Positions 888 to 43,074 of a stretch of 64,000 nucleotides of DNA are shown piece by piece. Below the pieces are notes generated by a model. That model saw only the letters and a list, made by a program, of their open reading frames with translations. It did not search any database and was not told the origin of the DNA. A program made the position numbers and the translations under genes. The DNA is from a bacterium (GTDB lineage Bacteria > J088 > JAWLBW01): contig JAWLHK010000002.1 in the NCBI GenBank assembly GCA_041690355.1, forward strand, positions 283,082 to 347,081, read 5' to 3'. The stretch's first letter is position 1. Every line of letters starts with the position of its first letter.

Positions 888-2717
<1,830 letters not shown>

Positions 2718-8139: not shown

Positions 8140-10431
8140 TCAGTTCGCGCGACTCGTCATCTCGAAGACGATCTCGCGGCTCGTGGTCAGCTCTTCGTGC
8201 TCGAGGTAGTGCCGGTTGATGCGCTTACCGTCCACGTAGACCGCGCCGACATAGATATTCTTCTCCGAAGTTCCCGGCGCGCGAATGGTGAGGGTGCGGC
8301 CATTCTCGAGGCGGATGACGGCCTTTTCGAAGATCGGCGTGCCGATCCAGTAGCGGGTCGTGGCGGGAATCGGATAGAAGCCGAGGGCGCTGAAGATGTA
8401 CCAGGCCGACAGCGTGCCGCCGTCGTCGTTGCCGTCGAGGCCGTCGGGACCCGTGCCGTAGCGGCTTTCCATGACCCACCGGATGACCGGCGCGCCGCGT
8501 TTCGGTTCGCCCCACATCGCATACAGGTAGGGGGCGTGCAGGTCGGGCTCGTTGCCGTGCCAGTAGTAGTTGTCGGGCATGCGGATATCGCCGAGATATG
8601 GCTTCGGCGTCTCCTGCGACTTCGTGAAGAAGTGGTCGAGCTTCGCCAGGGCCGCGTCGACGCCGCCGAGCAGCGTCGCCAGCTTCTCGACGTTCCACGG
8701 CACAAGCCAGAGGTACTGCCAGGCGTTGCCCTCGGTGTAATCGTCGGTGTGGTTGAGCGGGTCGAGGGCCGGTAGCGCCCAGGAGCCGTCTCGCTTTTTC
8801 GCGCGGAAAAAGCCGTTCTCCGCATCCCAGAGGGTGTCGAACGCGTCGGCCCGGTCTGCGAAGAACAGGGCGTCTTCTTCCTTGCCGATGGCCTGCGCGA
8901 ACCGGCTGATGGCAAAGTCGGCCCACATGTTTTCCTGCGTAACCGAAACGGAACCGTTGGTGTTGTCGGCGGTGCAGTGCCCGAGGGTGTTGTAATCGTC
9001 GACGCAGCGCCGCATGTTGTACGGGTCACCCCAGACGGCCGTCGAGACCATGAGCGCGTAGGCACGTTGCCAGTCGAAGTCGCGGATTCCCTTGAGATAG
9101 CTGTCTGCAATCACGATGTCGGCCGGGGTACCGATCATGGATGCCCCGTCACGGTGGGCGAAGGGCCAGCGGGGCAGGGAGCCGCGGGCGCGCCCCATTT
9201 CGACGAGTGAGCGCACGAAGTCGCGCTGATACGAGGGCGTCAGCCACGTCAGCAGCGGATGCAGCGTGCGGTAGGTATCCCACAGGCTCATGTCCGAGTA
9301 GAACTCGCTTCCGGCGTCGGCGGCGATGCTTCCGTCAAAGGCACGGTGGCGGCCGTTCACGTCGCTGTAGAGGCTCGGCATCTGCAGGGCATGGTAGAGG
9401 GCCGTGTAGAAGATTTCGCGCTGGTCGGGCGTGCCCCCTTCGACTTCAATCTGGTCGAGGCGGGTCTCCCAGACGGTGCGCGCCGCTTCGCGGATGTCGT
9501 CGAAGGTACGCCCGGCCGTTTCGACCGAGCGGTTCGCCTCGGCATCCCGGGCGCTCGTGAAGGAGATGCCGACGAAGACCTCGACCGGGGCCGACGGATC
9601 GAAGTGGAGATAGGCCCCCGTGCTTCCGCCGCTGCCGTCGGCGCGGGCGTTGATGCCGCGATCCTGGAGGGCGCCGCCGTCGGTGGTCGCGCTCCACACG
9701 CCGTACTTGCGGAAGGGCCTGCTGAAGACGGCATCCATGTAGATGGTGACGCCGCCGAAGCGCCCCGAAAAGGCGTTCCGCTGATGCAGGGAGCCGCGCA
9801 GCCGCTTCTCGCCGGGAAGGATCTCGATCTGGCTCCAGTCGACCTCGCCCGAAGAGAGCGTATGCCCGAGGTCGACCACGACGACGGCATCGGCGCCGGG
9901 GGGAAAGGTGTAGCGGTGCGCGCCGGTGCGCAGCGTGGCCGACAGCTCGGCGCGGATGGCCTGGGCCCGCTGTTCTTCATCGGCCGGATCGGAAACGCCC
10001 AGATCGACGGCGTAGTACCCCGGCTCGCCGACCTCGGCCCCGTGCGTAAAGGGGGCGCTGTATCCGCGCCAGCTCGTTTTCTCGGCGGTCATGCCGAGCG
10101 TGGGCATGAAGGTGACGTTGCCGTAATCGATGGCGCCGGTGCCGTGGACGTGCGTGTGGCTGAAGCCTTCGATGTGCGTATCGCCGTAGAAGTAGCCGGC
10201 GAAGTGCGCGAAGGTCTCCCGGCCGAAGAGTCCGCCCTGGGTGTCGGGGCTCAGTTTGACGAGGCCGAAGGGGAGGGCGGCGCCCGGGTAGCAGCTGCCG
10301 GCGCCGAACCCGGTGCCCCCCGTGCCGATGAAGACGTCGACCTCTTCGAACGGCGAGCGCCGCTCGGATTCGGGAAGCGGAGGGCAGGCGGCGAGCAGGA
10401 AAGCGAAAATCAGGAAGACGAATCGCATCAT
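8140..10431 (-). CDS. glycoside hydrolase family 92 (alpha-mannosidase-like), secreted/lipoprotein
   Basis: About 764 aa; signal peptide MRFVFLIFAFLLAAC; GH92 N-terminal signature VFIGTGGTGFGAGSCYPGAALPFGLVKLSPDT. Confidence 0.85.
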   Translation of the reverse strand: MMRFVFLIFAFLLAACPPLPESERRSPFEEVDVFIGTGGTGFGAGSCYPGAALPFGLVKLSPDTQGGLFGRETFAHFAGYFYGDTHIEGFSHTHVHGTGAIDYGNVTFMPTLGMTAEKTSWRGYSAPFTHGAEVGEPGYYAVDLGVSDPADEEQRAQAIRAELSATLRTGAHRYTFPPGADAVVVVDLGHTLSSGEVDWSQIEILPGEKRLRGSLHQRNAFSGRFGGVTIYMDAVFSRPFRKYGVWSATTDGGALQDRGINARADGSGGSTGAYLHFDPSAPVEVFVGISFTSARDAEANRSVETAGRTFDDIREAARTVWETRLDQIEVEGGTPDQREIFYTALYHALQMPSLYSDVNGRHRAFDGSIAADAGSEFYSDMSLWDTYRTLHPLLTWLTPSYQRDFVRSLVEMGRARGSLPRWPFAHRDGASMIGTPADIVIADSYLKGIRDFDWQRAYALMVSTAVWGDPYNMRRCVDDYNTLGHCTADNTNGSVSVTQENMWADFAISRFAQAIGKEEDALFFADRADAFDTLWDAENGFFRAKKRDGSWALPALDPLNHTDDYTEGNAWQYLWLVPWNVEKLATLLGGVDAALAKLDHFFTKSQETPKPYLGDIRMPDNYYWHGNEPDLHAPYLYAMWGEPKRGAPVIRWVMESRYGTGPDGLDGNDDGGTLSAWYIFSALGFYPIPATTRYWIGTPIFEKAVIRLENGRTLTIRAPGTSEKNIYVGAVYVDGKRINRHYLEHEELTTSREIVFEMTSRAN

Positions 10432-10494
10432 AGCGATGGATTCTACCATGGCGCGTCATTTCTGTAACGCGCTACTTGAGCGCCGGGCACCAGT

Positions 10495-15375: not shown

Positions 15376-15450
15376 TGGTGGGCGATGTAGGGATCGAACC
15401 TACGACTTCCACCGTGTGAAGGTGGCACTCTCCCGCTGAGTTAATCGCCC
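15376..15450 (-). tRNA. tRNA-Val (anticodon CAC)
   Basis: Minus-strand read GGGCGATTAACTCAGCGGGAGAGTGCCACCTTCACACGGTGGAAGTCGTAGGTTCGATCCCTACATCGCCCACCA folds as a cloverleaf: 7-bp acceptor stem, D and T arms, anticodon loop TTCACAC, encoded CCA. Confidence 0.9.
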
Positions 15451-17417: not shown

Positions 17418-18308
17418 TCAGCGCCGTTTGCCCTGGCTCTCGAGATCCGAATCGTCCTCGTCGTCGGGGTCCTCCGGATCCTCCTCTTCATCGTCTCGGT
17501 CATCGTCGTCCGGCTCGCCGGGCGCTTCGGGGTCTTCATCGTTGATGCGGGGCTGCTGATCCTGCGATCGGGCGCGAATTTCCTCCACCGCTCGCGTTTC
17601 ACCCGCGCGCTCCTGCAGCTCGTCGCGCTGCAGTGCATCGGCCGCATCCCGGGCAGGGTGAGCCGGCCGGCTGAACCCGCGCATGGCGTGGAGCCAGGAG
17701 TCAAAGGCAGACCCCTTCAATGCCTCCGGCTGCACCGCAGCCAGGTCTTCACCCGAGACGAGGCCGGCCGCCAAGGCCCGCGCGGCGGTCCGGGTCGCGT
17801 CGTCCATCTGGCCGGGGCGCAGTGCCGCTCTCAACTGCGTCTTCACGAAGGCTACGGCTTCGCCCTCGCCGGCGCCGGCCGCATTCAGGACGCCGGTGGC
17901 GTACAGAGCAGACTGCATGCGTTGCGCGTCGCCGGCCAGAGCCTGAAGATCGGCAACGGTCGCTGCCGACAAGCCGCCGGCCATGGCCGTCAGCGCCGCC
18001 TGCTGCACGGGGCGTGCCGCTACGGCTCCGGGGGCGGCCTTCTGCAGCGCGGCAAGCCGAGCCCGCTGCAGTTGCAGCGCTTCGACGAGCCGGACTGCCG
18101 GAACCCGCTTTGCGACACCTTCGAGCGCCTTTTGTCGCAGCGGTTCGGTCGGCAGGCCGTCGTTCTCGGCGGCATCGAGGAGCGCCTGTACGCGGGCAGC
18201 CACCTCGCGCGGATAGCCGCTGCGGGCGAGTCGATCGGCAAGTCTCTCCTCGCCCCACGCAGACGGGATGGAAACCAGCAGCAAGAGGATGGTGGCGATT
18301 GTTTTCAC
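17418..18308 (-). CDS. secreted Ala-rich protein with poly-acidic C-terminal tail (hypothetical)
   Basis: 296 aa; signal peptide MKTIATILLLLVSIPSAWG; C-terminal D/E-rich tail. Confidence 0.55.
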   Translation of the reverse strand: MKTIATILLLLVSIPSAWGEERLADRLARSGYPREVAARVQALLDAAENDGLPTEPLRQKALEGVAKRVPAVRLVEALQLQRARLAALQKAAPGAVAARPVQQAALTAMAGGLSAATVADLQALAGDAQRMQSALYATGVLNAAGAGEGEAVAFVKTQLRAALRPGQMDDATRTAARALAAGLVSGEDLAAVQPEALKGSAFDSWLHAMRGFSRPAHPARDAADALQRDELQERAGETRAVEEIRARSQDQQPRINDEDPEAPGEPDDDDRDDEEEDPEDPDDEDDSDLESQGKRR

Positions 18309-18691
18309 GGTGTCCTCTTCTCTAACGGTCGAGCCGCCTCGGAGTCACCGCCCGGCGGAACCAGGAGTACGGCGTTGCGGCCGCCAAAGTCGTCTTGCTC
18401 GTACCAGTCGAAATCGACGGGCGGCGCACTCCCCGCAGGGCCCAGGCAGTGCAGCCGATACACACCGGGCGGCGGCGACGCAAACTGCAGACGCCAGCCC
18501 GCGCGAGTCTCGCGGCTTTCGAGCAGAGAAACCGGTCGCCATGCCGAAAAGTCAGCCAGCAGCTCCGGTCTGCCTCCCAGGGCCGGGCACGTGACTTCCC
18601 AGGCCGCGCCCAGCGACTCGGGGCGTGCCTCACGGTAGCAGCCGGTGACCGCGGTTGCGGCTAGAACCAGTAGAGCGGCGCGAATTCCCAT
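18305..18691 (-). CDS. lipoprotein (hypothetical)
   Basis: 128 aa; lipobox LAATAVTGC; overlaps both neighbours. Confidence 0.5.
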   Translation of the reverse strand: MGIRAALLVLAATAVTGCYREARPESLGAAWEVTCPALGGRPELLADFSAWRPVSLLESRETRAGWRLQFASPPPGVYRLHCLGPAGSAPPVDFDWYEQDDFGGRNAVLLVPPGGDSEAARPLEKRTP

Positions 18692-19566
18692 AGCAGCCGG
18701 GCGGTTGCCCTTTCATAGGAAAAGACGTTCGAGTGGTTGCGCATCGCGGCGGCTGACAGCGTGATGCGATGGGAGGCGGCAACGCGTTGATCGAACCGTG
18801 CATAACCCGCCACCCGTGCGTCGGCCCGTCCCGAGCCATAGTCGCGCACACGGTAGGCGGCCGTGAGCGATGCCGAGGCCCCCCGCCAGAGTGGCGCCGC
18901 GAGGCCGCCGCGCACAGACCAGCCATCGTACCGGTAGACGGCTTCGTCTTCAACGCTGCGGGCGAGGCCGGCCGCCACGGGCACGGCGAGCCACGACAGG
19001 ACCCGCCAGCGCAGGCGCGCTTCGGCGCGGTGTTCGGTGTCGCGTCTCGGATCCAGGTTCGCCGCAGCATCGGCCGTAAGCCGCGTGCCGGCGAAAAGAG
19101 CGCCTTCTACCGGTGCGTCCGGCGCCCACGTGAAAAGTCCTTCGACCTGGCCCCCGTAGGACGTGCGGCCGCCCACCAGCCGTGCCGCCCGGTAGCGGTA
19201 GCCCGCCACAGAGAGGTCGAGCCGCGTTCGCAGGCTGGTCAGAAACGACCACCCCAGCCCCCCTTCGTAAAAGAAGGACGCACCCGGTGAGGCGGTCGGA
19301 GACGACAGCGCCGTGAGTTCTTCACCCTGCGCCGAAACGTCGACGGCCAGCCGGTGCCGCAACCCGGGCACCCAGACGGCCGTCCATCCGACTTCGCCGC
19401 CGGCGATGCCCACGGCGGTCGCGTCCGTCGCGGCGAAGTCATAATTCGAGTCGACGGCCGCCTGCAGGCCGATGCGCGGCCCCGTGGCGAAGACCGGCCC
19501 GTCGGCATGGGCGCGTGCTGCGGGGGCGCCGAGGAGCGCGAGAAGAAGTATCGTTCGCAACAACAC
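18661..19566 (-). CDS. putative outer-membrane beta-barrel protein
   Basis: 301 aa; signal peptide; alternating hydrophobic pattern; C-terminal aromatic residue (…PLYWF). Confidence 0.5.
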   Translation of the reverse strand: MLLRTILLLALLGAPAARAHADGPVFATGPRIGLQAAVDSNYDFAATDATAVGIAGGEVGWTAVWVPGLRHRLAVDVSAQGEELTALSSPTASPGASFFYEGGLGWSFLTSLRTRLDLSVAGYRYRAARLVGGRTSYGGQVEGLFTWAPDAPVEGALFAGTRLTADAAANLDPRRDTEHRAEARLRWRVLSWLAVPVAAGLARSVEDEAVYRYDGWSVRGGLAAPLWRGASASLTAAYRVRDYGSGRADARVAGYARFDQRVAASHRITLSAAAMRNHSNVFSYERATARLLWEFAPLYWF

Positions 19567-19578
19567 GCAGAGGCGACC

Positions 19579-20160
19579 TTACCGGGCGGCGATGTGGACG
19601 ACGGAATTGACGCGGCCGAACCCGTCGTCGACTGTCCCGGCCGCGGCCGGATCGGCCAGCCACTGCTCGCCATCGACGACGAACTGATACTGATAGACGC
19701 CCGGCGTCAGCTCAATCGATAATCGCCAGACCCTGCCTTCACGGCGCAGGACGTGGCGCTCCGGATCCCAGCCATTGAACTCACCCACGAGGGCGACCGA
19801 TTCCGCATGCGGGTGGACGAAGACGAACTCCGTCCCCGAAGGGGAACCGGGCAGCGTTCTCGCCGCCAGAACGCCGAGCGCGAAGGCGAGCACCAGGGAC
19901 GCAAAGGCCGCCAGGGGCGCCGCCCGCCGCAAGGTGAGGCGCCACCATGGGGTACCGTGTTCGGCCGCACGCATACGTACGGCGCGCAAGACCCGTTCCT
20001 CGAAACCGGGAGACGGTTCGGCGTCGATGGGCATGGCCGACCAGGTGCGGGCGGCCGCATCGAGCGCCGGCGATGCGGCACGCCGCCGCGCAAACGCGGC
20101 GTGCTCGGCTTCGGTGAGTTCGCCGGCGAGATACTTGGAGAGCAGTTCAGCGTCACTCAT
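19579..20160 (-). CDS. anti-sigma factor with C-terminal CBM48/AMPK-beta-like carbohydrate-binding domain
   Basis: 193 aa; N-terminal anti-sigma-like region, one TM helix, then VALVGEFNGWDPERH...GVYQYQFVVDGEQWLADP resembling the AMPK-beta glycogen-binding domain; overlaps the sigma gene by 8 bp. Confidence 0.65.
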   Translation of the reverse strand: MSDAELLSKYLAGELTEAEHAAFARRRAASPALDAAARTWSAMPIDAEPSPGFEERVLRAVRMRAAEHGTPWWRLTLRRAAPLAAFASLVLAFALGVLAARTLPGSPSGTEFVFVHPHAESVALVGEFNGWDPERHVLRREGRVWRLSIELTPGVYQYQFVVDGEQWLADPAAAGTVDDGFGRVNSVVHIAAR

Positions 20161-20728
20161 ACAGTTTCTCCAGAGCCTTCAACAGCATAGCCCGTCCGCG
20201 CAGCAGGCGCATCTTGACCGCGCTCAGCCCCACGCCCAGGACCGAGGCGATTTCCTGCAGCGGCCGGTCGTCGTAGTGGGCGAGCATGAGCACCTCGCGA
20301 TAGGAATCGGGGAGAGACGCGAGCGCCTTGCCGACCAGCCTGCGCTCTTCGTCAGAGACCATGCGCACGTCTTCCGGTTCGCCGCCCACGGCCGTGTGGA
20401 GCGCGTACTCCAGCGGCCGCTCGTTTCGAACCGCCTGGGCGCGGAAGTAGTCGTGGGCGAGATTCGAGGCGATGCGCATGACCCAACCGTCGAGGTTCAC
20501 CATCGTGTGAAAGGTGGGCAGGCGGGTGAGCGCACGTACGAGCGCTTCCTGCGTCAAGTCCTCGGCGAGCGTAAAGGAACCTGTCATGCGCAGCAGACGC
20601 CTGAAGAGGAGGGTCTTGTAGCGCTCTACGAAGGCCGACTGGGCCGACCGGTCGCCTGCCTTGCACCGTCGGACGAGGTCTTCGTCATCGGCGCTCGGCG
20701 GGCGGTCGGTAGTGGATTCCTTTGTCAC
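20153..20728 (-). CDS. RNA polymerase sigma-70 factor, ECF subfamily
   Basis: 191 aa with sigma region 2 and region 4 features. Confidence 0.9.
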   Translation of the reverse strand: MTKESTTDRPPSADDEDLVRRCKAGDRSAQSAFVERYKTLLFRRLLRMTGSFTLAEDLTQEALVRALTRLPTFHTMVNLDGWVMRIASNLAHDYFRAQAVRNERPLEYALHTAVGGEPEDVRMVSDEERRLVGKALASLPDSYREVLMLAHYDDRPLQEIASVLGVGLSAVKMRLLRGRAMLLKALEKLYE

Positions 20729-20902
20729 GCGCGCTCATTCCCGGCCTTCCGGGCACGTCAGGTAACCGTCCCCTCGGGCGCGAGACAGTATACCCTACGG
20801 GAATAAACGGATACTCCCCGCCCGCAGTCACATTCTTTTTTCACGCCTGTGACCCGAAGGGCTGCCGGCCGTTGATCGAGAAACCATTGCACCGAGGTCA
20901 CC

Positions 20903-21862
20903 ATGCGCGCTTCCACATCAACCATGATTCTTGCGTTCGGGCTCGCCGCCTGCGCGCCTGCCGCCGCCACCGATCCCGCCGGCCGCCTGTCTGCGGGCGA
21001 CGTGCCGCAGGCCACCGCGCGGCTCACCATCCAGGCTGCGGCGCCCGCCGCGGCGGCCCCTGTCCAACCCCTCGCGTTTCTCGCGAACGGCGTCACCATC
21101 GAAGCGGCGACGGCCGTCATTGCCGAGGTCAATCTCAAGGGCTGGGAGTACGAGGAGGATGACGAGCACGAAGGCGATGATGGCGCGGATGAACGTGAAG
21201 AGGAGGAGGTGGAAGACGATTCGGCTTCCCTGAGCGGCGCGCTGCTGCGCGGCCAGGCAGAAGACGACTCCATCGACGAGGAGGAGGCTGACGAAGCGTC
21301 GTCCGAGGATACCGACGATTCCGGCGACGAAGAAGACAGCGAAGACCCTGAAGTCGAAAACGTAGACTTCAAAGGTCCCTATCATGTCGACCTGCTGACC
21401 GGAGCAAGCACGCCGCCGTTCGGCGATTCCGTGCTGCCGTCGGGGGCATATCGCAGCGTCGAGTTCAAGCTCGACGCACCGGAGGACTCGACGACCGCCG
21501 CGTCGATTGAAATCGCCGGTCGCTTTGCGGTCGACGGCGTTTACCACCCCTTCATCCTGCGCAATCTGCGCGACGAGGAGCTCAAGTGGGATTTCGCCGC
21601 CCCGGTTTCCATGTCGGCGGCCGCCGTCAACGAACTGGTCCTCCGTATTCCCCTGGGGCAGTGGGTGAACGCCGCCCTGGTAGAGGCCATGGCCCAGTCC
21701 GTACGCGACGGCGCGGTCGTGCCCGATGCCGACGGCGTCTACCTCTTTACGACCGAGACGGCCGCGGTCGCCGACATCCTGGAAGCCAATCTCGAGAATG
21801 AGGGCGGGCTCGAACACGATGACGGTGACGACGACGAAGAAGACGACGAAGCGGCTGAATGA
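20903..21862 (+). CDS. acidic lipoprotein (hypothetical)
   Basis: 319 aa; lipobox LAFGLAAC; long D/E-rich low-complexity stretches. Confidence 0.55.
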   Translation: MRASTSTMILAFGLAACAPAAATDPAGRLSAGDVPQATARLTIQAAAPAAAAPVQPLAFLANGVTIEAATAVIAEVNLKGWEYEEDDEHEGDDGADEREEEEVEDDSASLSGALLRGQAEDDSIDEEEADEASSEDTDDSGDEEDSEDPEVENVDFKGPYHVDLLTGASTPPFGDSVLPSGAYRSVEFKLDAPEDSTTAASIEIAGRFAVDGVYHPFILRNLRDEELKWDFAAPVSMSAAAVNELVLRIPLGQWVNAALVEAMAQSVRDGAVVPDADGVYLFTTETAAVADILEANLENEGGLEHDDGDDDEEDDEAAE

Positions 21863-21961: not shown

Positions 21962-22981
21962 CTAGGCCCGCGAGCCCGTGGGCGGCTCGACCGGATTCTC
22001 GACCGTGTCGTCGAGCTGCTTGCGCAGGGCGGCCGGATCGAGCGCCTTGAGCGCCATCGCGCCTGAACCCGGCACCCGGTCGGGATACCGGTTCGTCCAT
22101 GTACGCGCCGGAAAATCGAACTCCAGAATCGGCGCCAGCTCCTGAAAGTGCATGTCGGGATCAAACTCCGACTTGCGCCGCATGCGCCGGCCTTCCTTAT
22201 GCAGGCGCTGGGCCGTGTCGAGCATGCGCTGCCCGGTCGGATCGTTGTGGTAGGTATGCGAGCGATCCAGCTGATGCAGCATGTCGAAAATACTGTTCAT
22301 GGCCAGGTGATCGTAGCGGTGCGCGTCGGCGGCGTCGAACTGCCATGGTGAGCGCTGGTTCATGGAATTGAGCGCGCTGCGCCACTGCTTCATGTTCTGC
22401 ACGAACAGGGTCGAGTTGAAGATCATTTTGTTCACGCGGTGTGAAAAGATGGTCTCTTCGAGCTGCGACTGGAGCAGCGCGTCGTCGCGCGGATCCACCA
22501 GACGCTGAATACGGCCGGCCATGTCCCAGATCGGTTTCTGCGTCCGCCCGTCGTAGCGCACCTCCCAGTAGGCATGCTTGAATCCCCGCGGGGCGTCGCT
22601 GCGCAGGACCTGGGAGGGAATGAATATGTTGTGGGCGATCGTGTCGGCGGCCAGGTGGGTGATATAGCCCCACATGAAGGCTTTCTGCGGCTCGTCGGGG
22701 GCCTTTTCGAGCAGCTCGAAGGCGACGTCCCAGTTGTGGCAGTGCAGCCGGTAATCGATGTACTTCTTGCCCAGAATCAGATCGGCCGCCAGGTTCCCGT
22801 ACATGTAGTCGAACGAGTACGTGGCGAGCAGCGTGCGCAGGGCGACCGGCACCATCTCGAGGTTGATGAGGACCTCGCTCGCAAAGCGCAGATGCGTGGC
22901 GGGGCCCCAGGCCCATGCCGCGTCGGGCACGAGAAAAACGAGCAGAAAACCGATGAAGATGGACAAGAAAACCATGCGCAC
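21962..22981 (-). CDS. zinc-dependent phospholipase C family protein
   Basis: 339 aa; signal peptide; WGPATHLRF and GYITHLAADTIAHN metal-ligand motifs; last ~25 codons lie on the reverse strand of the 80-bp repeat. Confidence 0.65.
   Translation of the reverse strand: MRMVFLSIFIGFLLVFLVPDAAWAWGPATHLRFASEVLINLEMVPVALRTLLATYSFDYMYGNLAADLILGKKYIDYRLHCHNWDVAFELLEKAPDEPQKAFMWGYITHLAADTIAHNIFIPSQVLRSDAPRGFKHAYWEVRYDGRTQKPIWDMAGRIQRLVDPRDDALLQSQLEETIFSHRVNKMIFNSTLFVQNMKQWRSALNSMNQRSPWQFDAADAHRYDHLAMNSIFDMLHQLDRSHTYHNDPTGQRMLDTAQRLHKEGRRMRRKSEFDPDMHFQELAPILEFDFPARTWTNRYPDRVPGSGAMALKALDPAALRKQLDDTVENPVEPPTGSRA
21988..22067. repeat. 80-bp direct repeat, copy 2 (3' end of the phospholipase C-like gene, opposite strand)
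   Basis: Matches 17318-17397 with 4 mismatches. Confidence 0.85.
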
Positions 22982-33357: not shown

Positions 33358-34692
33358 ATGGGAATTCTGACATTCATCCTCGTGCTGGGGATTCTGATCT
33401 TCGTTCACGAGTTCGGCCACTTCTATTTCGCGAAACGCGCGGGCGTCGGCGTCGAACGTTTCTCCATCGGCTTCGGCCCCAAACTTTTCGGCTTCACGCG
33501 GGGCGAAACGGAGTACCGCGTCGCCGCCATTCCGCTCGGCGGCTACGTGAAGATGGTCGGCGACAATCCCGACGAGGCCCGGCAGGGGACCGAGAAGGAA
33601 TTTCTGAGCCGCCCCGTGCGCGACCGGCTGCCCATCGTGCTGGCGGGCCCCATCGTGAACCTGGCGCTCGCGTTCGTGCTCATGCCGCTGGTCTACCTGC
33701 TCGGCGTGCAGGTACCCGCCTTCGTTCAGGAAAAGCCGGTCATCGGGTATGTCGAGCCGGGGAGCCCGGCCGAGCGCGCCGGCCTGCAGACGGGGGACGA
33801 AATCGTCGCCATCAACGGCAAGCCGATGCCCGCCTGGGAAGACGTGCTCGCCTCGACCATGGCCGAGCCCGGCAAGACGATTCAGGTGCGGCTGACCCGC
33901 GGCGGCTCCAGCCTGCAGGTTCCCGTGCATCTCGAAACCGCCGAGAGCGGGGCCGCGGCCTTCGGCGTGCAGCCCCCGGCCGTGCCCGTCGTCGGGCAGG
34001 TCAATCCCGGATCTCCCGCCGCCCTGGCCGGCCTGCAGCCGGGCGACCGGATCACCAGCCTGAACGGGGTGCCGGTCGACCACTGGGTGGCCATGGCCGA
34101 ACGCATCCAGTCGCTGGGGACGCAGCCGATTGAAGTCGGCTTCGCGCGCGACGGGGGCGAGCAGCGCGTCATGCTCACCCCCGAGCGCATGGCCGACGCC
34201 GACCGGGTCATCATCGGCATCCAGCGCAGCGAAGACCTGGTCGAGGTGCAATACGGCTTCGTCGACGCTGTGCGCGAAGGTTCGCGCCGCGTCGTACAGA
34301 TGACGACCCAGACCTTCGACATCCTGGGCAAGCTGCTGACCGGACAGCTGGGGGTGAAGACCCTGGGCGGCCCGATCCGCATCGCGCAGGTGACGTCGGC
34401 GGCGGCCGAAAGCGGCCTCTCCGACGTGCTGTCGCTGATGGCGTTTCTCTCGTTGCAGCTCGGCATTCTGAACCTGCTGCCGTTTCCGGTGCTCGACGGC
34501 GGGCACGTGCTCTTCATGAGCATCGAGGCCATCCGCCGCCGTCCGCTGTCGCGGCGCGCGCTCGAAATTTCGACGCAGGTCGGCTTCGTGCTGCTGCTCG
34601 TGCTCATGGTCGTCGTGACCAAGAACGACATCATGCACGCCTGGGGTCCGCAGATCGAGCGCATGTTCGACACGGTCCGTAATCTGTTCTGA
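33358..34692 (+). CDS. rseP: RIP metalloprotease RseP (site-2 protease)
   Basis: 444 aa; HEFGH zinc motif in TM1, PDZ region, C-terminal TM helices. Confidence 0.9.
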   Translation: MGILTFILVLGILIFVHEFGHFYFAKRAGVGVERFSIGFGPKLFGFTRGETEYRVAAIPLGGYVKMVGDNPDEARQGTEKEFLSRPVRDRLPIVLAGPIVNLALAFVLMPLVYLLGVQVPAFVQEKPVIGYVEPGSPAERAGLQTGDEIVAINGKPMPAWEDVLASTMAEPGKTIQVRLTRGGSSLQVPVHLETAESGAAAFGVQPPAVPVVGQVNPGSPAALAGLQPGDRITSLNGVPVDHWVAMAERIQSLGTQPIEVGFARDGGEQRVMLTPERMADADRVIIGIQRSEDLVEVQYGFVDAVREGSRRVVQMTTQTFDILGKLLTGQLGVKTLGGPIRIAQVTSAAAESGLSDVLSLMAFLSLQLGILNLLPFPVLDGGHVLFMSIEAIRRRPLSRRALEISTQVGFVLLLVLMVVVTKNDIMHAWGPQIERMFDTVRNLF

Positions 34693-38231: not shown

Positions 38232-40645
38232 ACCTTACGTCCTACCTCCTGCGCCAGACGCCTGTCGAGCCGACCCTTCTCGAGCAGATACTCGCGTTCA
38301 CGCAGGACAATCCCCAGGTCATCGCCGGCGCGGGCGTGCTGCTCGTGGTGCTTCTGGTGCTGCGCAAGTTCATCGGCTCCGATGCGGGCCCCAAACCGGG
38401 CAAGCTCCCCCGCAATCCGAAACAGGCCCGCCGGTGGGCCGAGCTGTCGATTCAGGCCAACAAGTTTCGCCAGGCGGGCGACTTCTACCTCATCGCCAAC
38501 GAATACGAAGCGGCTTACAACGCGTTTGCGCGCGCCGCCGCTTACGACGAGGCCGCCGAGGCGGCGCTTGCGCTCGGTGCCAAGGAAAAAGCGGCGATGA
38601 TGCTCGAAAAGGCGAAGAAGTATGTCGCCGCCGCGAAGCTGTATCAGCAGTCGGGACGCTACAACGACGCCGGCGAGGTCTTCGCGCGTGCCGGTAACGA
38701 TACCCTTGCCGCCGAAGCCTTCGAGGCGGCTGGCAACTGGGGCAAGGGGGCCCTGCACTTCGAGCGCGCCCGCAACCACGTCAAGGCGGCCGACCTCTAT
38801 GTGAAGGCGCGGGATTTCAAGAAGGCCGGCGCCCTGTACGAAGCTGCCTACCGCGAGGCGCGGCAGCAGTCGAAGGAGAACCCCGCGCGGACGCGCCAGG
38901 CCGGCGAGTTCGCGCTCAAGGCTGCGGGCTGCTTTGAGAAGATCAAGGAAGTGAAACCGGCCATCGCCGTTCTGAGCGACGCCGGCTTCTTCGAAAAGGC
39001 GGCCGGCCTGCTGCGCTCGACCAACGATCTCGAGGGGGCCGCCGACCTCTACGTCAAGGCCAACCTCCCGCTGCAGGCCGCCGATCTCTACGTGCAGATG
39101 GGCGACCCCGAGCGCGCCGCCCGCCTCAAGGGCGATGTCCTGCGTTCGGAGGGGAACGAGCTGGCCGCCGCCGATAATTACCGGCAGGCCGGTGAGTATC
39201 TGGAAGCGGCCGAAATCTTCCGCCGGCACAACCATTACGCCGAAGCCGCCTCGATGTATCTGCAGGTGGGCGATTACCTGCAGGCAGGCGAAATGTTCCT
39301 GCGCGCCAAGGACCCACGCAAGGCGGCCGAGGCCTGGGAGCGCGCGGGTGACTATCGCCGGGCCGCCGAGGTCTACCAGCGGCTCGGCGACGGCCGCAAG
39401 CAGAGCGAACTGCTCGAGCGCGCCGGCGAGTCGTTCGAAGCCGGGCTGAATTACTACCGTCTGAAGCTCCCCGACGAGGCCGTGCGGGTGCTTTCGTCGA
39501 TTCCCGGCGAGCATCCCTCGTTCCGCAAGGCCTGCAACCTGCTCGGCGACATCTATCGCGAAAAGGGAGACGCGGCGCAAGCCGTCAAGAAGTATCAGCA
39601 GGCGGTCGAGGGGCAGAAGGTCAGTCAGGCCAACCTGCATCCCTATTACAATCTGGCGCGCGTGCTCGAAGAGTCGGGCGACCCGCGCCTCGCCTTCGCC
39701 CTGTTTCGCAAGATTCAGCAGGAAGACAGCCAGTTTCAGGACGTGGCGGCGCGCGTCAACACGCTCAAGTCGCGCGTCGAAGAGGCCGATCGCAAAGAGC
39801 GCGAGAAGACGGCGCCCCCCGATACGAGCACGGCCACGCCCGTGGTCGCGCGCGCCAAGAAGCGTTATACGCTGTTGTCGGAGATCGGCCGCGGCGGCAT
39901 GGGAATCGTCTACAAGGCGCACGATCAGGTGCTCGACCGTGTCGTCGCCTTCAAGGTGCTCCCCTCCGATCTGCGCAACAATGACGTGGCGGTGAAGAAC
40001 TTCCTGCGCGAAGCCAAGGCCGCCGCCGGGCTGAACCACCCGAACATCGTCATCGTCTACGACGCCGGCGAAGAGGGTGACAACTATTATATCGCCATGG
40101 AGTACATCGAGGGGCGTACGCTGCGCGACATCGTCGTCGCCGACGGCAAGATTCCGCTGCCCGGGCTCATGGTCATCACGGCCCAGCTCTGCCGGGCCAT
40201 GGAGTACGCGCACGGCCGCAGCGTGGTTCATCGCGACATCAAGGGCTCGAACATCATGTGGACCGACGCCAAGCTCGTCAAGGTCATGGATTTCGGGCTC
40301 GCCAAGGTCATTCAGGAAGTCGTCAACTTTCAGACCGTGGTCGGCGGCACCCCGCACTACATGGCGCCCGAACAGATCCTGGGCGAAGAAATCGACCGCC
40401 GCGCCGACCTGTATTCGCTGGGGGTCACGCTCTACGAGTGCGCCACGGGCACCGTCCCGTTTCCCAAGGGCGACGTCGGCTACCATCACATCCACACCCC
40501 TGCACCCGACCCGCGCGAGTTCAACAAGGATGTACCCGAGGCCTATGCCAAGCTGCTTCTGAAGTGCCTCGTGAAGGATCCGGCGGCACGCTATCAGAGC
40601 GCCGCCGAAATCTACGAGGACCTCAAGGAAATTCGGGTGCGATAA
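38228..40645 (+). CDS. membrane-anchored Ser/Thr protein kinase with TPR-like helical repeat region
   Basis: 805 aa; N-terminal TM; about 450 aa of Ala-rich repeats; C-terminal kinase domain ([29 protein letters not shown]); GTG start. Confidence 0.85.
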
Positions 40646-43074
40646 TGGACACGCAGGCCGTGCTCGAGCACCTGCAGCGCTTACCGCCCTGGGCCTGGGG
40701 CGCGGCCCTGCTGGGACTGGTGGCGCTGGTCTTCGCCGTGCGCGTTCTGAAGCGCTACGGCCGGCTGCGCCGTTACCCCGGTCTTCAGCCGCGGTTTCGA
40801 TCGGCGGCCGGGGCGCGCGTGCTCGCCGCGGCCGAGGCCTCCGAAAAGCGCGGTGCGTTCGAAGAGGCGGGAGATCTGTTTCTCCAGCTAGAACTCCACG
40901 ACGGCGCGCGCCGCAACTATCATCGCGCCCAGACCGGGTTGAAGCTGGCCGGCTCTTATCTCGCCACCGGGCAGAAGCTCGAGGCCGCCACGTGGTTCGA
41001 ACGTGCGGGGCGAGTCGACGAGGCGCTCGAACTGTACCTCGAAGTGGGCCAGATCGCCCATGCGGCACGTGCGGCGCAGTCGGCCGGTGACTTTCTGCAG
41101 GCGGCCCAGCTCTTCGAGGGGGCGGGCGATTTCGCCGCCGCGGCTCCCCTTTACCGGCGCATTCAGGACATTCCCAAAGCGTTCGCCTGCTATGAGAAAG
41201 CCGGCGAGCAGGGGGCGGCGGCGGCGCTGGGCGTCGAACACGTCGGCCAGATGCTCGCCGGGCTCCGGCAGGGGAAAAAGGCGAGCGCCGCCGACGTGCG
41301 CGAACTCGAGTCGCTCGCCGAGCGCGCGGCGGCGATCCTGGCAGAGTCGGAGAAGGCGAGCGACTGGGAGCAGGGGCTGCAGCTCTATCTCTTCGCGAAG
41401 CGGTGGGCGAGCGCGGGGCACCTTTTCCGCAAACTCGGCAAGCTCGAAAAGGCCGTCGAGCAGTTTCTGCGCGCCGGCGACAAACGCAATGCCGCCGACG
41501 TGCTCGACGAACTCGGCCGCCCCCGCGAGAGCGCGAAGCTCAAAGGCGAAGACTTTCTCGCCCGCGACATGCTGCGCGAGGCGGCCGCGCAGTTCGAGAC
41601 CGCCGAACTCTGGGAGCAGGCCGCCGAAGCGCTCGTCAAACTGGGCGACAACCTGAAGGCCGCCCTTCTGTTTCGCCGCATGAACATGCCGCTGCGCACC
41701 GCAGAGCTGCTGGAAAAGGAAGGGCAGTACGGCGAGGCGGCCGCCGCCTACCGCGAGGCGGGCGACGACGAACGCGCCCTGCACTGCTACGAGCAGTTGA
41801 GCGACTGGGGCGCGTATACGGAACTGCTCGAAGCGAAGGAGCGGTGGTACGAGGCCGGCCTGAATTACCTCAAGCGGGGGCTGAGCGACAAGGCAATCAA
41901 GGCCCTGCAGCGGGTCGACGAGCACGATCCGCGCTACGGGGCCGCGGCCCTCGCGCTCGGCGACCTCTTCGCCGAGAAGGGCATGCATGGCCTCGCGAAA
42001 GAAAAGTACCTGGCCCTCATCGGTGACGAGCGCATCCAGCGCCGGAACATCGAGGCCTATTACAAGCTGGCGCTCGCCTACGAAGCCAATCAGGAGCTCA
42101 ACCAGGCGCTCCAGACGTTCGAGAAGATCCTCGGCCTCGACTTTCACTTCAAGGACGTCGGCCAGCGCATTCACGATCTGAAGGAACGCATCGCCCTGCG
42201 CACCCCGTTCATGACGCCGGCGCAGAGCGGGGGCCAGCCGGTCGATCCCTTCGCCGCCACGCTCATGCAGCCGGCCCAGGCGGCCAAACGCCGGTATGAA
42301 ATCGTCTCTGAACTCGGCCGCGGCGGGATGGGTGTCGTCTACAAGGCGCGCGATACGGTACTCGACCGGGTCGTGGCCCTCAAGGTGCTCCCCCCCATGT
42401 TCCGCCAGAACGAGCTGGCCCTGCGCAACTTCTTTCGCGAAGCCAAGAGCGCGGCGGCACTTCAGCACCCCAATATCGTCACCGTCTACGATACGGGTGA
42501 AGAAGCGGGCAGTCCCTATATTACAATGGAATTCGTAGAGGGGCGCGATCTCAAGCAGATCGTGTCGGAGTCGGGGGCGTTTGCGCTGGGGCCGCTTCTG
42601 CTGGTGTTCGGGCAGATGTGCCAGGCGCTCACCTATGCGCACGAGCGATCCATCGTGCACCGGGATATCAAACCGAGCAACGTGCTGTGGACCAAGGACA
42701 AGCAGGTCAAGGTAACCGACTTCGGCCTCGCCCGCGCCCTGAACCAGGGTGCGAACACCATGACCACGACCGGCGGCACCCCCTACTACATGAGCCCCGA
42801 GCAGACGCTGGGCAAGAACCTCGATCACCGCACCGACATCTACTCGCTGGGGGTCATGATGTTCGAGCTGGCGACGGCGCGCCTGCCGTTCGAGGAGGGG
42901 GACATCGGGTACCACCACGTTCACTCCGAGGCGCCGAACCCGTCGGTGCACCGCAACGACCTGCCCCCGGCCATGAGCCGTATCATCCTGCGCTGCCTGG
43001 CCAAGAAGGCCGACGAGCGCTATGCGACGGCCGCCGACGTTTTTCGCGAGCTGCGCGAGTCCTTCGGCAGCTGA
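40645..43074 (+). CDS. membrane-anchored Ser/Thr protein kinase with TPR-like helical repeat region (paralog)
   Basis: 809 aa from MDTQAVL; same architecture (LGRGGMGVVYKA, HRDIKPSN, DFGLARA); ATG overlaps the upstream stop. Confidence 0.85.
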   Translation: MDTQAVLEHLQRLPPWAWGAALLGLVALVFAVRVLKRYGRLRRYPGLQPRFRSAAGARVLAAAEASEKRGAFEEAGDLFLQLELHDGARRNYHRAQTGLKLAGSYLATGQKLEAATWFERAGRVDEALELYLEVGQIAHAARAAQSAGDFLQAAQLFEGAGDFAAAAPLYRRIQDIPKAFACYEKAGEQGAAAALGVEHVGQMLAGLRQGKKASAADVRELESLAERAAAILAESEKASDWEQGLQLYLFAKRWASAGHLFRKLGKLEKAVEQFLRAGDKRNAADVLDELGRPRESAKLKGEDFLARDMLREAAAQFETAELWEQAAEALVKLGDNLKAALLFRRMNMPLRTAELLEKEGQYGEAAAAYREAGDDERALHCYEQLSDWGAYTELLEAKERWYEAGLNYLKRGLSDKAIKALQRVDEHDPRYGAAALALGDLFAEKGMHGLAKEKYLALIGDERIQRRNIEAYYKLALAYEANQELNQALQTFEKILGLDFHFKDVGQRIHDLKERIALRTPFMTPAQSGGQPVDPFAATLMQPAQAAKRRYEIVSELGRGGMGVVYKARDTVLDRVVALKVLPPMFRQNELALRNFFREAKSAAALQHPNIVTVYDTGEEAGSPYITMEFVEGRDLKQIVSESGAFALGPLLLVFGQMCQALTYAHERSIVHRDIKPSNVLWTKDKQVKVTDFGLARALNQGANTMTTTGGTPYYMSPEQTLGKNLDHRTDIYSLGVMMFELATARLPFEEGDIGYHHVHSEAPNPSVHRNDLPPAMSRIILRCLAKKADERYATAADVFRELRESFGS

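Follow-up and report, generated by a model that had tools for sequence, protein, structure and literature searches.

In a 64,000-nucleotide stretch of bacterial DNA (the window; assembly GCA_041690355.1, contig JAWLHK010000002.1, positions 283,082 to 347,081), we analysed an operon that starts with the gene of an extracytoplasmic function (ECF) sigma factor and continues with that of a single-pass membrane anti-sigma factor ending in a carbohydrate-binding module of family 48 (CBM48), the type of domain carried by the beta subunit of AMP-activated protein kinase (AMPK). The pair combines an ECF/anti-sigma core of the ordinary kind with a sensor domain and a set of partners that have not been described. 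The reading that we prefer, and hold with about even confidence, is that it forms a SigW/RsiW-like switch in which CBM48 would be the input domain, that a conserved envelope module has this switch as its regulatory core and that the ligand is a glycan other than classical glycogen. The two genes, and the three parts of the anti-sigma protein, are located as follows.

20153..20728, minus strand: ECF (group 4) sigma factor of 191 amino acids (aa), regions 2 and 4 only, first gene of the operon
19579..20160, minus strand: single-pass anti-sigma factor of 193 aa, whose start codon (ATG) makes an overlap of 8 nucleotides (nt) with the end of the sigma gene
19918..20160, minus strand: cytoplasmic class-I anti-sigma domain, zinc-less variant, residues 1-81 (AlphaFold2 helices, matches of profile A5 described below)
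19861..19917, minus strand: transmembrane helix, residues ~82-100, predicted N-in/C-out (hydropathy peak of 2.25, AlphaFold2 helix 81-100)
19588..19845, minus strand: periplasmic beta-sandwich of the CBM48/AMPK1_CBM type, residues 106-191, separated from the membrane by about 7 residues (Pfam, PDB sequence matches, Foldseek)

The sigma protein matched Pfam families Sigma70_r2 (E value 1.8e-14), Sigma70_r4_2 (5.2e-13) and Sigma70_r4 (1.2e-9), the region-4 models overlapping, and had no other significant Pfam match. With NCBIfam model TIGR02937 (sigma70-ECF) it scored 89.5 bits for a cut-off of 42.9; its best specific matches were the SigW models, all far below their cut-offs (105.9 bits compared with 209), so that no named equivalog can be assigned to this ECF sigma factor. 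Its composition, sigma-2 and sigma-4 regions only in 191 residues, is that of ECF group 4, whose members are of about 200 aa.

We then looked at the N-terminal part of the anti-sigma protein. Taken alone, the window protein gave weak zf-HC2 matches (0.0014-0.0047) and a match to NF052375 'anti-sigma factor' (7e-7) that stayed below the cut-off, and zf-HC2 was matched at up to 1e-8 in its relatives. A profile (A5) made from the N-terminal domains of the window protein and eight relatives was searched against solved structures, and matched RsiW (5wuq, 1.8e-8), RslA (3hug, 2.3e-5), DdvA (1.8e-4), RsrA (4.4e-4), ChrR (0.016) and RseA (0.039), so that the anti-sigma identity is grounded in homology besides gene position. 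AlphaFold2 (AF2) modelled helices at residues 3-11, 17-29 and 31-42 (block-mean predicted local distance difference test score, pLDDT, of 83-94 over residues 1-40) and a fourth helix at 53-67. The HxxxCxxC motif of the zinc-binding anti-sigma (ZAS) subclass, found on the same helix in three relatives (L010, L011 and L016), is absent from the window protein, where the aligned residues read RxxxSxxL; with no Cys in it at all, the cytoplasmic domain belongs to class I as a zinc-less variant and is not a ZAS domain. By analogy with class-I proteins, it would sequester the cognate sigma factor. A single transmembrane helix, already proposed in a preliminary description of this DNA, was predicted at residues ~81-100 by both hydropathy and AF2. 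As three Arg precede this helix and one follows it in the sequence, the positive-inside rule points to an N-in/C-out topology. Because profile A5 also matches DdvA, we ran PADLOC on six proteins of the module, which gave no defence-system match. Most anti-sigma factors from Gemmatimonadota (L008-L085) have a much shorter cytoplasmic region of ~40-60 aa with the motif ...RVIxxLRxPVxIDPxLDxRVM...; their N-termini, devoid of the YLDGEL-type first helix of the window protein, may constitute a distinct minimal anti-sigma domain.

The preliminary description had assigned the extracytoplasmic part to the AMPK-beta/CBM48 type on the basis of the peptide VALVGEFNGWDPERH...GVYQYQFVVDGEQWLADP, which corresponds to residues 122-171, and had suggested profile searches and structure prediction as checks. 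Both agree with it. Residues 106-191 matched AMPK1_CBM at 3.1e-12 (47.0 bits, cut-off 26.8) and CBM_48 at 1.1e-11 (45.3 bits, cut-off 22.4), above the curated Pfam cut-off in each case, and the two models were also matched by all 41 aligned family members. A phmmer search of the PDB with the anti-sigma protein retrieved the AMPK beta-2 CBM (6.7e-6) and also GlgB N-domains, and a 41-sequence family profile retrieved the pullulanase 5ot1 (7e-16), the AMPK beta-1 CBM (2.4e-12) and the CBM48 of feruloyl esterases, meaning that this fold family is not confined to alpha-glucan enzymes. AF2 folded residues 108-190 into a beta-sandwich, with a block-mean pLDDT of 89-95 over residues 111-160 and of 48-78 over residues 161-193, and the top Foldseek matches of this model in the PDB were the AMPK beta-1/2 CBMs (E ~5e-6, target TM-score 0.6-0.75). 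The linker between the transmembrane helix and the CBM48 core counts ~7 residues in the window protein, at the lower end of the family range (7-48, median 22). The CBM48/AMPK1_CBM-like family as a whole is very large in bacteria, with 23,527 cluster representatives at E <=1e-3 in a HMMER search with an eight-sequence profile. The top scorers of that search (P0017-P0164) carry 2-20 tandem CBM48-like copies, typically four in ~480 aa; dominated by these repeat proteins, it was uninformative as a guide to the anti-sigma architecture and was not retained.

A scan of GTDB species-representative genomes listed at least 80 related loci, without the genome of the window among them, and the counts of loci, pairs and partners given throughout refer to the matches listed. 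In 38 of 80 loci the CBM48 open reading frame (ORF) directly follows an ECF sigma gene. A word-indexed protein search gave few relatives, several of them with a short N-terminus, a transmembrane helix and a CBM48, and the sigma gene was immediately upstream in three of the four gene contexts obtained in this way. In the 38 paired loci the CBM48 ORFs are mostly 166-248 aa long (three, at 319-341 aa, are over-called), and nearly all of them have one predicted transmembrane helix and a C-terminal CBM48. The computed gap between the sigma and anti-sigma genes runs from -444 to +97 nt, a range this wide because ORF starts were over-called; about two-thirds of the values fall between -19 and +2 nt. 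According to the record names, the pairing occurs in at least nine lineages: Gemmatimonadota, which provide the majority, Nitrospira, Atribacterota, Chitinispirillaceae and Treponemataceae, together with Myxococcales, Burkholderiales, Bipolaricaulota and Eisenbacteria. The closest relative among the matches listed (L003), with an anti-sigma factor 43% identical to that of the window, has the same divergent arrangement. The sigma factor is thus accompanied, as expected of an ECF factor, by a co-transcribed cognate anti-sigma factor (8-nt overlap, class-I domain encoded downstream, pairing kept in related loci), and the pair announced in the preliminary description holds, with both ORFs on the minus strand at the coordinates listed, a sigma protein matching the Pfam and TIGR02937 models and an anti-sigma domain homologous to that of RsiW. 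In a full-text literature search we found no paper on an anti-sigma factor with AMPK1_CBM, PF16561, CBM48 or a 'glycogen-binding domain'. The main text of the ECF re-classification paper makes no mention of a CBM48 anti-sigma family, and the group may be catalogued without description in its supplements (PMC7826278).

To compare the sugar-binding site, 44 anti-sigma CBM48 domains were aligned with the AMPK beta-2 CBM. The equivalent positions are as follows.

AMPK W100, window W131: Trp in 44 of 44 members
AMPK W133, window W167: Trp in 40 of 44 members
AMPK G147, window G182: Gly in 41 of 44 members
AMPK L146, window F181: Phe in 39 of 44 members
AMPK N150, window N185: Asn, Ser or Thr in 38 of 44 members
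AMPK K126, window Q159: never Lys in 44 members (Ala in 25, Met in 9, Gln in 4, others)

In the AMPK beta-1 CBM the substitutions W100G and K126Q abolish glycogen binding, and W133L and G147R lower it (PMC6274970). At a mean column identity of only 27% in the anti-sigma CBM48 family, the alignment indicates that the aromatic platform is under strong constraint, without a residue that classical glycogen binding needs. A second family of CBM48 proteins encoded next to the pair (see below) has the same Trp pair, invariant or nearly so; its window member, a lipoprotein, retains the first Trp (FSAW) and has lost the second. Judged from these alignments a conserved binding surface exists, whose most economical ligand would be a glycan other than classical glycogen. 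A protein ligand, either the outer-membrane-tethered CBM48 or the helical protein of the same operon, is a serious alternative, and a nutrient alpha-glucan sensor is unlikely. The 'glycan-sensing' function put forward in the preliminary description is therefore retained in part: the nearly invariant Trp platform speaks for it, the K126 equivalent that is never Lys and the absence of a conserved carbohydrate-active enzyme (CAZyme) or transporter neighbour against it. A gene of the alpha-mannosidase type of glycoside hydrolase (GH) family 92 lies 10 kb from the module (8140-10449, minus strand, 1.5e-153) and is not a conserved neighbour in related loci.

The pair is part of a larger unit. In the ORF list of the window, five tightly packed and translationally coupled genes occupy positions 17418-20728 of the minus strand, the sigma gene being the first, and a 174-bp divergent intergenic region separates this operon from a sixth gene. 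A terminator and RNA-fold check 3' of the operon gave nothing significant. The four partner genes are the following.

18661..19566, minus strand: secreted beta-strand-rich protein of 301 aa, putative outer-membrane beta-barrel, 12-nt gap after the anti-sigma gene
18305..18691, minus strand: lipoprotein of 128 aa with lipobox VTGC and a degenerate CBM48-like domain, 31-nt overlap with the beta-rich gene
17418..18308, minus strand: secreted helical-repeat protein of 296 aa with a KALEGVAK motif and an acidic tail, 4-nt overlap with the lipoprotein gene
20903..21862, plus strand: DUF4382-like lipoprotein of 319 aa with lipobox LAAC and acidic inserts, candidate regulon member, divergent from the sigma operon

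Co-transcription of the pair with a beta-barrel-like protein and lipoproteins, as first described, had to be amended. It stands for the former, which is beta-strand-rich, ends in ...YWF and has no detected homologue, and for one lipoprotein only; the DUF4382-like lipoprotein is divergent and not co-transcribed, and the last gene of the operon, which encodes the helical-repeat protein, had gone unmentioned.

The helical-repeat protein is the most conserved partner of the family. Homologues of its N-terminal ~190 residues (out of 296) are encoded downstream of the anti-sigma gene in 41 of the 43 paired loci in which they were counted. A separate database search from the helical-repeat protein gave only hypothetical proteins without a Pfam family, whose contigs likewise show the sigma factor, the CBM48 anti-sigma factor, an AMPK1_CBM protein of 338-358 aa and the helical protein in that order. 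The KALEGVAK motif is invariant in this family. The structural model of the helical-repeat protein, a confident all-alpha repeat (pLDDT 85.6), resembles only designed helical repeats. The tail of the window protein (17418-17560) contains long poly-Asp/Glu low-complexity stretches, for example EDPEAPGEPDDDDRDDEEEDPEDPDDEDDSDLE, and the DUF4382-like protein (20903-21862) has such stretches as well, at residues ~85-160 and 300-319. Helical homologues P0165-P0169 have Gly/Arg/Pro-rich tails instead of acidic ones, and the acidic stretches of both partners, which are predicted to be periplasmic, could be a lineage-specific cation-binding element or spacer.

A second CBM48 ORF follows in 18 of the 38 paired loci, either as a small protein (~120-140 aa) or as a ~340-430-aa fusion made of a signal peptide, a ~290-aa beta-strand-rich region without Pfam family and a C-terminal CBM48. 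The 128-aa lipoprotein of the window aligned with the C-terminal CBM48 of these second proteins (hhalign probability 96.9%, E value 2e-10) and with the anti-sigma CBM domain (BLASTP, 5e-4). The 301-aa beta-rich protein has a signal peptide, a C-terminal ...PLYWF and a weak DUF481 match (0.016, below cut-off), and a PDB sequence search with it found nothing. Homology of this protein to the N-terminal region of the fusions was rejected, BLASTP, phmmer and hhalign (probability 0.1%) being all negative. The period-2 hydrophobic moment measured against shuffled sequences (z=4.2 for the 301-aa protein, 2.2-4.8 for the fused N-terminal regions and -1.6 for a helical control) supports a beta-strand-rich character predicted for both. 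The beta-rich protein and the lipoprotein of the window may thus be a split version of the fusion seen elsewhere.

A DUF4382 lipoprotein gene occurs in this neighbourhood in other genomes too: in ten related loci it lies immediately 5' of the sigma gene, and in one more it is placed downstream of the module. The 319-aa window protein itself gave a weak DUF4382 match (0.0018, below cut-off) and has long acidic inserts. Convergent with its gene is a zinc-dependent phospholipase-C-like gene (21962-22981, minus strand, 1.6e-14), which is not a conserved neighbour.

In the intergenic region between the sigma operon and the DUF4382-like gene, two candidate ECF-type promoters were recognized.

20804..20832, minus strand: candidate promoter of the sigma operon, TGTGAC-N17-CGTTTA (pattern match)
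20848..20875, plus strand: TGTGAC-N16-CGTTGA as candidate promoter of the DUF4382-like gene, whose ATG comes 27 nt further on and is preceded by a GAGG ribosome-binding site

The pattern TGT[AG]AC-N16-17-CGT has only these two matches on both strands of the 64-kb window, and both fall inside the 174-bp region, where they are back-to-back and correctly oriented with 15 A/T-rich bases between them. Upstream of the sigma gene the pattern, which was derived from those very sequences, occurs in 4 of 41 loci for 0.08 expected; it is found in L001, L006 and L011, and the equivalents in L003 are GGTGAC-N17-GGTCAA on the sigma side and TGTGAC-N17-GGTCTG on the DUF4382-like side. ECF factors typically have an autoregulated promoter made of an AAC-type -35 and a CGT-type -10 element. 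These sites support autoregulation, with the divergent lipoprotein gene as a putative target, in a way that is suggestive rather than strong, because a blind motif count over the 41 loci found nothing. A relaxed match, GTGAC-N16-CGTTAG (18348-18322, minus strand), lies in the 3' end of the lipoprotein gene, just upstream of the helical-protein gene, which starts at 18308. This match may be an internal promoter serving the latter gene, or a chance occurrence, since the relaxed pattern has 7 matches in the window for ~4.7 expected.

The scheme that we propose is the following. The zinc-less class-I domain would keep the sigma factor at the inner membrane, and the CBM48 beta-sandwich, exposed on the outer side of that membrane at a distance of a few residues, would be the input domain. 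The module would comprise the DUF4382 lipoprotein, the sigma factor, the CBM48 anti-sigma factor, the beta-rich protein with the second CBM48 domain (fused in most relatives, two genes in the window) and the secreted helical-repeat protein. The two-Trp surface of CBM48 would bind a non-glycogen glycan, probably an envelope or periplasmic one, and a change in occupancy, read with the partner proteins, would open the anti-sigma factor to regulated proteolysis at site-1, then site-2. The freed sigma factor would then act at the TGTGAC-N16/17-CGTT promoters, transcribing the operon to which it belongs as well as the divergent lipoprotein gene. Domain identities, topology and the conservation of the pairing and partners were computed; sigma binding, the ligand, proteolysis and promoter use are what we infer. 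Sequestration and site-1/site-2 release are proposed because class-I single-pass anti-sigma factors such as RsiW and RseA behave in this way. The window also encodes an RseP-type site-2 protease (33358-34692, plus strand; Peptidase_M50, 7e-74, and PDZ domains) that is not linked to the module and is likely the enzyme which, as a housekeeping function, cleaves the single-pass anti-sigma factors of this genome within the membrane.

Several observations weigh against this scheme. The Lys needed for glycogen binding in AMPK (K126) is absent from all 44 members and replaced by Q159 here, no CAZyme, sugar transporter or polysaccharide-synthesis gene was found among the conserved neighbours of the related loci, and the conserved Trp surface could equally serve as a protein-protein interface. 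The F181-G182 loop was modelled by AF2 at a pLDDT <50. The promoter pattern is post hoc, since it was drawn from inspecting the closer, non-Gemmatimonadota relatives, and it is missing from most Gemmatimonadota loci (4 matches in 41); a blind bipartite k-mer count over the 41 sigma upstream regions gave nothing above shuffled background. Finally, no site-1 protease is evident in the module.

It is possible, if rather unlikely, that the CBM48 domain is an interaction module in trans-envelope protein-protein signalling and not a lectin. The anti-sigma CBM48 would then touch the outer-membrane-tethered CBM48 and/or the helical protein, and loss or change of this contact, for example upon failed outer-membrane assembly, would lead to degradation of the anti-sigma factor, a concept close to FecA-FecR-FecI or RseB-RseA. 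Several observations speak for it: 18 of the 38 paired loci have in the operon a second CBM48 ORF, fused to a beta-rich domain or forming a lipoprotein, the helical partner is nearly obligatory (41/43), and carbohydrate-metabolism neighbours are lacking, as is the glycogen-binding Lys of AMPK. The short linkers (median 22, 7 here) would moreover hold the CBM48 domain at the membrane. However, both sugar-stacking Trp and the Gly/Asn positions are kept in two paralogous families, which is most simply explained by sugar binding, the window lipoprotein has lost its second Trp, and the beta-barrel nature and outer-membrane location of the partner are themselves predictions.

A broader and more doubtful proposal is that the sigma/anti-sigma pair regulates a trans-envelope sensing module not described before and found in at least nine lineages. 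In it, the inner- and outer-membrane-tethered CBM48 domains and the dedicated periplasmic helical protein would together monitor either the physical connection between inner and outer membrane or a glycan of the envelope, for example peptidoglycan strands, periplasmic glucans or lipid-linked oligosaccharide intermediates on the outer side of the inner membrane.

We regard as improbable the narrow form of the preliminary description, in which the CBM48 domain binds periplasmic glycogen, starch or maltodextrin as a nutrient signal and turns on polysaccharide use, like RsgI/SigI with cellulosome genes or the ECF factors linked to polysaccharide utilization loci (PUL) in Bacteroidota. Its nearest solved relatives do bind or process alpha-glucans (AMPK beta CBM, GlgB, pullulanase 5ot1 at 7e-16, SEX4 and LSF1), and the GH92 gene is 10 kb away. 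But the K126 equivalent is lacking in every member aligned, CBM48 also occurs in feruloyl and CE1 esterases, the conserved neighbours are uncharacterised envelope proteins and not GH13 enzymes, maltoporin or ABC sugar transporters, and the GH92 gene is outside the conserved module, with unrelated genes between.

Equally improbable is a passive ectodomain, a stable cap or spacer shielding the protein from a site-1 protease, the signal being unrelated (for example general envelope damage or a protease activated elsewhere, as PrsW on RsiW). The similarity of the sigma factor and anti-sigma domain to SigW and RsiW favours it, as RsiW is controlled by protease access and not by ligand binding, and so does the hypothetical nature of any ligand of the CBM48 ectodomain. 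But a cap would need neither near-invariant exposed aromatics over nine lineages at such a low mean identity nor to be inherited strictly together with a helical partner and a second protein of the CBM48 type.

The closest known system, SigW/RsiW of Bacillus subtilis, has a single-pass class-I anti-sigma factor (PDB 5wuq) from which the sigma factor is released by PrsW, then RasP proteolysis. The window pair resembles it in having SigW models as its best specific match, RsiW as its best profile match, one transmembrane helix and overlapping co-transcribed genes. It differs in that the SigW models are matched far below cut-off, in the absence of zinc ligands and in the CBM48 ectodomain, which RsiW lacks; the organism, moreover, is apparently diderm, and conserved partners of periplasmic and outer-membrane type belong to the module.

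Membrane anti-sigma factors with a carbohydrate-binding-type module outside are also known from Clostridium thermocellum, whose RsgI proteins, polysaccharide-sensing partners of SigI, undergo a regulated proteolysis ending with RseP (PMC10328401, PMC10556640, PMC6582324). Unlike them, the window protein has no RsgI_N domain (no RsgI-type Pfam match), its partner is an ECF factor and not SigI, and it has no autoproteolytic SEAL domain, only ~7 residues and no additional Pfam domain lying between the membrane and CBM48. RsgI modules are of the CBM3, PA14 or GH type and not CBM48, and RsgI targets are CAZyme genes, whereas the neighbours here encode envelope proteins. RsiV, which controls SigV, is itself the lysozyme receptor, inducer binding licensing site-1 cleavage (PMC5014341). 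The concept of an anti-sigma ectodomain that binds the inducer directly would be common to both, but the ectodomain folds are unrelated, and RsiV is found in Gram-positive bacteria and has a protein ligand.

With the AMPK beta CBM, the GlgB N-domain, pullulanase and SEX4/LSF1, the window domain shares sequence family and fold, with the W100, W133, G147 and N150 equivalents kept; it departs from the AMPK beta CBM at the K126 equivalent, never Lys, and at the L146 equivalent, a Phe. Its setting is also different, periplasmic and on an anti-sigma factor, not on a kinase scaffold or a GH13 enzyme. Finally, the combination of an ECF sigma factor with a single-pass anti-sigma factor and a genetically linked protein of predicted outer-membrane beta-barrel character, with a periplasmic domain, recalls FecA-FecR-FecI and the PUL-linked ECF/SusC-like systems. 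However, the operon proteins gave no FecR, Plug or TonB_dep_Rec match in Pfam, the beta-rich partner has only ~300 aa, and the linking domain would be CBM48 and not an N-terminal signalling domain.

ECF/anti-sigma pairs are a major bacterial signalling mechanism, and the input signal of most groups is unknown. The CBM48 anti-sigma family, which spans Gemmatimonadota, Nitrospira, Myxococcota, spirochaetes and several candidate phyla, offers a recognisable input domain with an intact aromatic sugar platform, together with fixed partners that have no Pfam family. If a glycan is bound, diderm bacteria would have an anti-sigma factor of the lectin type (the carbohydrate-sensing RsgI factors found are from Firmicutes), and with it there would be a way into envelope-glycan surveillance in phyla that have been little studied. 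Pairing of the anti-sigma CBM48 with the outer-membrane-tethered one would represent a new trans-envelope signalling geometry, and a true trans-envelope sensing module a new kind of envelope-stress pathway. As an orthogonal regulatory part, the candidate TGTGAC-N16/17-CGTT promoter could also be put to use together with the sigma/anti-sigma pair.

Outside the module, the window encodes a 938-aa protein (40258-43074, plus strand) in which TPR repeats are followed at the C-terminus by a Ser/Thr kinase domain of eukaryotic type (Pkinase, 3.4e-55). Rfam and ARAGORN detected a single RNA gene, that of tRNA-Val with anticodon CAC (15376-15450, minus strand). The TypA/BipA translational GTPase (888-2717, plus strand) has no named relative above 66% identity, which assigns the window to a deep lineage without cultured members, its best named matches being recorded as 'bacterium', Geothermobacter, Acidobacteria and Ignavibacteriae.

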